A stretch of 64,000 nt of DNA from Phyllosticta citribraziliensis (Eukaryota): positions 1,240,001-1,304,000 of the forward strand of contig NW_027117343.1 in the NCBI RefSeq assembly GCF_038025025.1, in the 5' to 3' direction. A program made the translations under genes and the position numbers. Under the pieces are notes generated by a model. It saw only the letters and a list, made by a program, of their open reading frames with translations, was not told where the DNA came from and made no database searches. This document shows, in pieces, positions 5,560-6,772 of this stretch. The stretch's first letter is position 1, and each line of letters opens with the position of its first letter.

Positions 5560-6772
5560 ATGGCCATGCACAGAGGCCCTGCGATTTCCGTTTTACTTGC
5601 ACTCGCCGCTATTTTCCTCGGAACTAAGGTGTTTGGCGCTCCCACAGGAGAAGGTACGTACATTGCTCTACTCCTTACCTGTCTGGCTCTACTCGTCCGT
5701 GTGGCCTGTTTCCCGTTCCTCGCCCGTATGTCTGGGCCACCAGCCTTGTCTACGTGCGTCGTCAAGTTCCATATGCTTTCTTCAACTCTCCTACCGTCGA
5801 CTCAGTCACTGCTGGATACACCATGCGTGGCCAAGGGGCTCTTCCAAAGAATACCTCAGTTGGAGAGGTTGTTTCCTGAGAGTGTGCTCTTTTATTTTCG
5901 GCAGGTCAATTCAGTTTAAATCTTCTTAGCTGCTGCAATGTTGCAGAGCTTTCGATTCTATCACGAGCTCAGAGGAGTTCTCCCTTGGTCTTCCAACCTT
6001 GTACTCACTTCGATTGTCTGACCGCAACCCACGGACAACGCACTTGCTACTTCTCCCTCTTAATCCAAGCCGAGCACATAAATCATTCCCTTGGACCTTT
6101 CTAACGATACTAGACACCCAGAACGTACATCTCGAGGCCCGGGACACTCCTCAGGCAGGCCCAAACTTTGAGGCTGCTCAAGACAAACCGCTGCTTGCTC
6201 CTCGTGCTCCAGTTCCCAATGCCGAGGCTGAAGCTTGGGAACGCGGGCCTTGCAGCAGCAAGGAGAAGCGTGACGCCAATGCGGATGCTGAAGCGGAGCC
6301 AATGGAAGGTCCTTCCTGCGGAGGAGTAGGCCACAGGCGTCGAACGCTCGAGAATGCTGCCGCCCCCAACCCGAACAAACATCTCGAGATTCGCGATGCT
6401 CTTGGACCAGGAGTGGACGCCGAGGCTGTTCCAGACAAACCACTACTTGTGCCTCGCGCTCCAGCTCCCGAAGCTGACGCTGACGCTGACGCTGAAGCCG
6501 ACGCCGAAGCTTGGGACGACCCGAACTGCCACAAGAAGCGCGACGCAGACCCCGAAGCGGCGTGGTCTCATCCGTCTTGTGGAGTCGGCCACAGGAAGCG
6601 GATGCTCAAGAGGGATGCCGATGCGGACCCCGATTCCCTTCATGATGACCTGGCGGAAAGAGTTCAAGGTGGACTCGATCATCAACTACTGGCGAGGACG
6701 CCTCCGAGCAATGCGCGACCTGCAAGAAAGTCGTGGGCCAGGAGGAGCATGCAGATGGGCCAAGAGCAGTAG
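5560..6772 (+). CDS. Secreted Kex2/Ste13-processed repeat peptide precursor (KEP / pheromone-precursor-like); 2 exons, intron 5654-6113
   Basis: Exon 1 encodes a signal peptide, MAMHRGPAISVLLALAAIFLGTKVFGA. A GTACGT donor (5654), CTAAC branch (6101) and TAG acceptor (6113) join it in frame to exon 2. Exon 2 has KR/RRR/RKR/PR sites, X-Ala/X-Pro dipeptide spacers and four Cys-containing cores. Confidence 0.8.

Follow-up and report, generated by a model that had tools for sequence, protein, structure and literature searches.

A 64 000-nt stretch of the genome of Phyllosticta citribraziliensis (contig NW_027117343.1, positions 1,240,001 to 1,304,000; hereafter the window, in whose numbering all positions are given) contains a two-exon gene at 5560-6772 (+) that very probably encodes a lineage-specific secreted precursor of the class of Kex2-processed repeat proteins (KEPs), processed by Kex2 and Ste13. 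Whether the released product acts outside the cell as a signalling peptide, directed to the host or back to the fungus and serving a purpose other than canonical mating, appears to us evenly balanced. The precursor is not a canonical two-Cys alpha-pheromone, from which published features set it apart, nor is it a known type of precursor of peptides that are made by ribosomes and modified after translation (RiPPs). As a source of fungal signalling peptides, KEPs are extensive and have hardly been characterized; the precursor described here is expressed, is limited to a genus that holds citrus endophytes as well as the citrus black spot pathogen, combines an unusual bipartite module with paired cysteines, and offers candidates of 10-11 residues that can be synthesized.

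The spliced coding sequence of 753 nt specifies 250 amino acids. Translation of exon 1, MAMHRGPAISVLLALAAIFLGTKVFGAPTGE, gives what reads as the N-terminal secretion signal expected of a KEP: an n-region with positive charge, 15 hydrophobic residues as its core and a putative VFG/AP cleavage site. This predicted signal peptide is the best-conserved N-terminal block across the family alignment. The frame that bears the cores has no ATG of its own, being part of exon 2, and holds two modules, each with an A and a B segment (Table 1). The initial annotation, made from the letters of the window, had taken the modules for a duplication and had placed four cores in them; the duplication is a true one, with 150 of 203 aligned bases identical, and the cores were reproduced exactly on translation. 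The same is true of the runs of X-Ala/X-Pro dipeptides, which stand in register after LAPR, KEKR, LVPR and HKKR (5, 5, 9 and 3 dipeptides); three runs stop at the Trp or Met that opens a core, and the fourth leaves one Ala. In total there are 22 in-register dipeptides, a number reached by none of 20000 shuffles of residues 32-198 (shuffle maximum, 12), and the pattern is far beyond chance. As first proposed, the precursor would be secreted, cut at sites of the Kex2 type and trimmed at spacers of the Ste13 type; the signal-peptide-like N-terminus, the four sites and these dipeptides agree with that. Each core has Ste13 dipeptides before it and basic residues after it, the arrangement that defines alpha-factor precursors. 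The Leu at P4 of the PR and RR sites is kept across species. The four cores differ from each other, and B1 and B2 share only PSCG..VGH.

The gene is real, spliced and transcribed. Transcript contigs from two public runs of two studies (X1 and X2) were placed on 3500-8500 of the window; since levels, strands and ends are not readable from such contigs, our claim is limited to the existence of the spliced form. In each run one contig skips the 460-nt intron (joint 5651->6112, cut +2), with a length of 2780 nt at 3698-6955 in X1 and of 1107 nt at 5431-6992 in X2, and transcription of the locus, which the earlier reading had made a condition of its proposal, is thus borne out. The kind of both transcript-bearing runs is only a guess. 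The NCBI model (P0003), annotated solely as 'uncharacterized protein', is 100% identical to the spliced protein and has the same intron junction. It starts at an upstream in-frame ATG, 5467; of the resulting N-terminus, P. capitalensis conserves the signal peptide but not the 31 added residues. A Met at 5560 or 5566 is kept as the start in the homologues P0004, P0005, P0006, P0047 and P0048, and the downstream Met is the start in four other models. Because the extension is unconserved, the signal peptide is conserved and other models begin downstream, we take 5560 as the likely true start and the annotated one as probably wrong.

A second intron on the same strand was joined in one contig of each run (joint 5014->5077, cut +1). 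It lies upstream of the start codon, so the mRNA leader is probably long, at more than 500 nt (about 4980-5559), and lies head to head with the 5'-end of the neighbouring gene. Upstream ATGs occur in this leader, for example at 5081. Introns of filamentous fungi are typically shorter than the 460-nt one described above. P. citrichinensis retains it at the same position and with some of the same sequence, and the model P0006 of that species reads straight through it; in the window, a 154-nt contig of depth 3.9 lies inside it (5946-6093).

Relatives of the precursor were found in Phyllosticta only. A word-index search gave 5 matches among 3954 candidates and its profile version 6 among 8000; when 1.84 billion representatives were searched exhaustively with an HMMER profile, 6 matched at E<=0.001, five of them named Phyllosticta proteins and the sixth a fragment identical to exon 1 continued without splicing into the intron. 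The named relatives come from P. citribraziliensis, P. paracitricarpa/citricarpa, P. citrichinensis and P. capitalensis. A metagenome scan with the family alignment returned no relative, and a Pfam search of the precursor protein returned no family. Thus, among the proteins searched, the family is restricted to the genus; as pheromone-like precursors evolve fast, deeper orthologues could escape detection.

Conservation within the family points to one predicted product. The conserved blocks are the signal peptide, GAPTGE, HLEARD, DKPLLxPR, the B core, MLKR/MEKR and the C-terminal tail. The four cores had initially been treated as equivalent products, a view that has to be given up: the A cores are not conserved between species, and the B core alone is. 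P. capitalensis and P. paracitricarpa each have (A)WSHPSCGVGH with a single residue changed, and four strain variants of P. capitalensis, with ~10 differing positions, have no difference within a B core. Alignment of homologues, proposed earlier as a check on the cores, gave a divided answer, with Trp and Cys of the B core invariant (W213 and C218) and the A cores drifting. The placing of Cys at residue 6 fared similarly: it holds in all four cores of the window and in 6/6 B-type cores across species, and fails in the A cores of other species. The A segments vary in length and sequence; those of P. capitalensis have no Trp and carry a tail of 12-17 residues after the Cys. An N-terminal X-X-His copper site, a pattern taken from general knowledge, was considered as a conserved feature and rejected, W-S-H being present in some B cores only.

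The models from P. paracitricarpa and P. citricarpa (P0004, P0053, P0054 and P0055) have module 1 frame-shifted and regain the frame before module 2, the sole module that they keep in frame. Their first module corresponds to the +1 frame of sequence resembling module 2 of the window (alignment score 80, vs 30 and 28 in the other frames). The shift reflects either real indels or problems of the gene models. In the same clade, one model has no signal peptide and two have a different, Cys-rich C-terminal extension.

Table 1. Features of the precursor gene, its predicted products and its divergent neighbour, with B cores of related species
Feature	Position	Strand	Description
Exon 1, coding part	5560-5653	+	ATG 5560; encodes predicted signal peptide MAMHRGPAISVLLALAAIFLGTKVFG, then APTGE; last base opens a split Asp codon
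Intron	5654-6113	+	460 nt, GTACGT...CTAAC branch site...TAG; exons joined in phase
Exon 2, coding part	6114-6772	+	pro-region, two modules, C-terminal tail, stop codon
Module 1	6128-6343	+	HLEARD..DKPLLAPR / AP-VP-NA-EA-EA / A1 / KR / DA-NA-DA-EA-EP / B1 / RRR
A1 core	6236-6265	+	WERGPCSSKE
B1 core	6302-6334	+	MEGPSCGGVGH
Module 2	6380-6601	+	HLEIRD..DKPLLVPR / 9 X-A/X-P dipeptides / A2 / KR / DA-DP-EA + A / B2 / RKR
A2 core	6512-6535	+	WDDPNCHK
B2 core	6563-6592	+	WSHPSCGVGH
Most conserved predicted product	6560-6592	+	(A)WSHPSCGVGH; columns W213, S217, C218 and G221 invariant in the alignments labelled A1 and A3
Conserved C-terminal tail	6686-6730	+	LLARTPPSNARPARK; outside the repeat; consensus LLARTPPSNxRPARK; conserved in P0003, P0004/P0055 and P0007/P0047/P0048
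Intron of the probable 5' leader	5016-5077	+	62 nt, GTATGT...CTAG
Prolyl-4-hydroxylase-like 2-oxoglutarate-Fe(II) oxygenase	3850-4760	-	divergent neighbour; exon 1 4462-4760, intron 4409-4461, exon 2 3850-4408
B core, P. paracitricarpa/citricarpa			WSHPSCRVGH
B core, P. capitalensis module 1			WSHPSCGIGH
B core, P. capitalensis module 2			WSGPSCRGVGH
B core, P. citrichinensis			divergent W...SC

On the processing that we propose, Kex2 would cut in the late Golgi after LLxPR, KR, RRR and RKR, Ste13 would strip the in-register X-Ala/X-Pro dipeptides and Kex1 would trim C-terminal Lys and Arg, releasing peptides of ~8-11 residues. Kex2 cuts after PR in the yeast K1 killer toxin as well. The selected product would be the B core, as the sole conserved one; it reads (A)WSxPSC and then G-[VI]-G-H. 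The A segments would be variable partners, each supplying one conserved Cys, possibly for a disulfide between A and B, and the conserved Pro might be modified by the lumenal prolyl 4-hydroxylase (P4H)-like protein encoded next door. The C-terminal tail, flanked by basic residues, could be a further product. As an IDA-type peptide this tail was rejected, PPS being all that the two have in common.

The cysteines make a two-chain product conceivable. In 6/6 intact modules of four species (two in P. citribraziliensis, two in P. capitalensis, one in P. paracitricarpa and one in P. citrichinensis), the A and B parts have exactly one Cys each, no further Cys follows the signal peptide, and Cys is the sole conserved feature of the variable A segments. 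A disulfide, formed in the endoplasmic reticulum before Kex2 cuts and joining the A and B peptides of each module, would be the simplest use of such strict pairing, and it is compatible with each of the functional readings discussed here. We hold it tentatively, as possible but somewhat doubtful: the spacing from Cys to Cys varies between 17 and 39 residues; the Cys could equally well pair as B-B or A-A, become glutathionylated or stay a free thiol; and the ESM Atlas model of the precursor, with a pLDDT of 0.38, lends no structural support. The best feature scores obtained with that tool were <=0.84, below its bar. The other uses first suggested for the lone Cys, Trp-Cys crosslinks and His/Cys metal sites, found no support in the analysis.

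With KEPs as described by Le Marquer et al. 2019 (PMC6339444) and Umemura 2020 (PMC7329392) the precursor shares secretion, short cores between dibasic Kex2 sites and a clear Ste13 signature. It differs from them in having only two bipartite modules with four non-identical cores, of which only the B cores are alike, and in the pair of Cys per module and the conserved tail outside the repeat. For comparison, the KEP pipeline of PMC6339444 is described there as asking for at least three nearly identical repeats separated by KR, RR or KK. Neither the name 'Phyllosticta' nor the core motifs are present in the supplements of the two papers, the Le Marquer peptide table being outside the scope of this check.

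Several considerations weigh against a KEP-class precursor with a signalling role outside canonical mating. Every processing step is read from sequence and from the pathway established in yeast and other fungi. The B core of P. citrichinensis is strongly divergent. Host- or mating-dependent expression is not readable from two runs of unrecorded condition. Adjacency to the oxygenase gene is kept within one genus only, where synteny is expected. Finally, the Ste13 signature is, by the account of Le Marquer et al. (PMC6339444), generally dedicated to alpha-pheromones in Ascomycota.

The last point bears directly on the possibility that the precursor is the Phyllosticta alpha-type mating pheromone, equivalent to ppg1 and diverged from a two-Cys WC..GQ.C peptide to a one-Cys WSxPSC..GH peptide. 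By the published definition, an alpha-factor precursor has a signal peptide, Kex2 sites and repeated Ste13 dipeptides ahead of each core, an architecture that fits the gene described here, and the precursor shares with ppg1/MF-alpha the pro-region, the (X-A/X-P)n directly before the cores, the trailing basic residues and Trp-first cores of about ten residues. At 10-11 residues the B core is inside the published range of 9-14, and it is nearly the same in three species, as pheromone repeats are also reported to be conserved within families. The yeast MF-alpha cluster was among the nearest language-model neighbours, at 0.80; this is under the bar of the tool and serves as a lead only. The products themselves speak otherwise. 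Published alpha-factors are described as repeats of one conserved 9-14-residue peptide, mostly with a GQ or PG beta-turn, and for Dothideomycetes outside Pleosporales PMC6339444 gives two conserved Cys in the alpha-pheromone. The B cores of all species have neither GQ nor PG and carry a single Cys where two would be expected, the cores of a given precursor differ from each other, and the extra A segments and the conserved tail are further differences from ppg1/MF-alpha. The lack of near-identical repeats, of a second Cys and of a GQ/PG turn upholds the initial statement that the cores are unlike published alpha-pheromones. In addition, the models of the heterothallic P. citricarpa/paracitricarpa have one intact module only, and the family profile matched no pheromone precursor of other fungi among the 1.84 billion representatives, so that no homology to annotated pheromone precursors was detected in that search. 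We consider a mating pheromone unlikely on this evidence. Searches of the literature on Phyllosticta or Botryosphaeriaceae pheromones yielded nothing relevant or specific among the papers listed, and a preprint on Phyllosticta mating-type (MAT) loci never mentions 'pheromone'. If the B peptide were an alpha-pheromone after all, Dothideomycete pheromones could leave the two-Cys type, and the peptide would be a tool for mating studies in Phyllosticta. The Ste12-type element TGAAACA, with the motif as in yeast, occurs three times in the window, below chance expectation, with none between 2617 and 36915, and carries no weight.

The divergently transcribed neighbour, whose gene model was mapped by tblastn with the protein P0009, is a P4H-like 2-oxoglutarate-Fe(II) oxygenase with an N-terminal hydrophobic anchor in exon 1. 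It matches PF13640 (1.6e-10, profile positions 1-97 of 98), and H176, D178, H262 and K272, which make up the HxD...H triad and the basic residue that binds 2-oxoglutarate, are invariant in 19/19 aligned homologues. Its eight best solved relatives are prolyl 4-hydroxylases or procollagen-proline dioxygenases, bar one 'Predicted protein'; outside Phyllosticta its relatives reach 37-48% identity at best and belong to scattered classes. GenBank accessions of precursor and oxygenase are consecutive in 16/16 cases (six of P. capitalensis, eight of the citricarpa/paracitricarpa clade and two of P. citrichinensis), from which conserved adjacency follows if the order of accessions is the order of features. 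Since same-genus synteny is expected anyway, adjacency is a weak hint of shared function. Both loci are covered in both runs. The 53-nt intron of the oxygenase gene (4409-4461, -) is left unspliced in the X1 contig, which splices both introns of the + strand; this could be retention, or a + strand antisense transcript running through the oxygenase gene.

A P4H-like neighbour also enters the idea of a fungal B peptide that mimics, or has converged on, the plant phytocytokines of the PIP/PIPL and group II CEP families. The fungus itself would mature it by Kex2, Ste13, Kex1 and the neighbouring P4H into (A)WSH-Hyp-SCG(V/I)GH, and its perception would fall to CEPR2/RLK7-type leucine-rich repeat receptor kinases of the host. 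The portions of PMC4526919, PMC12494267 and PMC4197245 used here describe PIP/PIPL peptides as having S(G,A,V)PS and then GxGH at the extreme C-terminus, and CEPs as having SPG(I/V)GH; group II CEPs have VPSPG(V/I)GH in common, and hydroxylation of Pro9 strongly promotes the activity of CEP14. Positions 7-15 of CEPs are given there as most commonly [PS]GHSPG[VI]GH, the Ser and the penultimate Gly as critical for function, and Pro11 as hydroxylated in all CEPs identified so far.

The B core resembles these plant peptides as a short secreted peptide in which 1-2 residues separate x-P-S from a later G-[VI]-G-H, with Val and Ile alternating at one place and Pro standing where hydroxylation matters in CEP14. 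HPSCGVGH and HPSCGIGH agree with the group II C-terminus at 6/8 positions, and B2 of P. capitalensis has SGPS, two residues and GVGH. Against the CEP consensus, B2 of the window agrees at 6/9 positions (the chance of at least six at a fixed place is 1.2e-5), and the window, translated in all six frames, contains G[VI]GH just two times. The solved relatives of the adjoining oxygenase are prolyl 4-hydroxylases, Phyllosticta is described as plant-associated, and for Botryosphaeriaceae peptide-hormone-like precursors with 2-4 phytosulfokine (PSK) domains have been tabulated (PMC13157962). Still, the resemblance was noticed post hoc, spans 8-10 residues only and is limited to the motif. Every B core has Cys in place of CEP Pro11, which places it outside group II CEPs, although the equivalent of Pro9 is present. 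The strict S[GAV]PS is found in one of the six B cores (SGPS, B2 of P. capitalensis), the others having SHPS or EGPS, with nothing comparable in P. citrichinensis, where no PIP/CEP-like motif is seen at all; GxGH is found in 4/6. After Kex2 and Kex1 the predicted C-terminus would be His in three of the six, the others ending in ...GHKA or ...GHW, and one strain variant of P. capitalensis would end in ...GHRHKME. The motif is thus incomplete or non-terminal in half of the cores. The conserved partner Cys points to a disulfide, which plant PIP/CEP peptides do not have, and the precursor is of the fungal Kex2/Ste13 kind, with products of 10-11 residues vs 13-15.

Microbial and nematode mimics of plant hormones (PMC8618561 and PMC13157962) likewise come from plant-associated organisms and are secreted peptides with a hormone-like C-terminal motif. 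In the parts of these sources drawn upon, CEP mimics are recorded only for nematodes and one bacterium, no PIP mimic is recorded, and the known mimics copy the whole domain of 12-15 residues, unlike the B core, which resembles its C-terminal half only. Weighing these points, we regard a phytocytokine mimic as improbable. If it were one, it would be the first fungal mimic of the CEP/PIP type, and Phyllosticta would be the first eukaryotic microbe for which maturation of such a peptide by the microbe's own enzymes had been shown; if it acted on plant receptors, the B peptide would add to the fungal phytocytokine mimics a new class that brings its own modifying enzyme.

Alternatively, the tailoring of a heavily modified RiPP, whether dikaritin-like or of a new class, could begin with the same neighbour, with more crosslinks made through Trp, Cys or His. 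A Kex2-processed precursor does adjoin a 2-oxoglutarate-Fe(II) oxygenase, with divergent transcription and with both loci covered in both runs, and this adjacency is kept across the genus; precursors of the ustiloxin and phomopsin type are also Kex2-processed repeat precursors of ascomycetes. We scanned the surroundings, 32 open reading frames in 1-31 kb of the window, against Pfam, and none encoded DUF3328/UstYa, a tyrosinase, a methyltransferase, a P450 or a transporter. A dikaritin-type cluster was rejected because these flanks contain no tailoring genes, DUF3328/UstYa, tyrosinase, methyltransferase and P450 all being missing. The remaining neighbours include housekeeping genes (ELP6-like, Atg29, sirohaem synthase and Rogdi), and Ste13 spacers, present here, are reported in PMC6339444 to be absent from known fungal RiPP precursors. 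A heavily modified RiPP is therefore very improbable in our judgement, and a KEP-class precursor with an unusual module is the description that we retain.

The other flanking genes comprise a weak SUR7-like match and a cellular RNA-dependent RNA polymerase gene at 17667-22844 (-), an uninterrupted frame of 1725 codons with a full RdRP domain (PF05183, E 4e-200). An Rfam search of 4600-7400 gave no match at E<=1.

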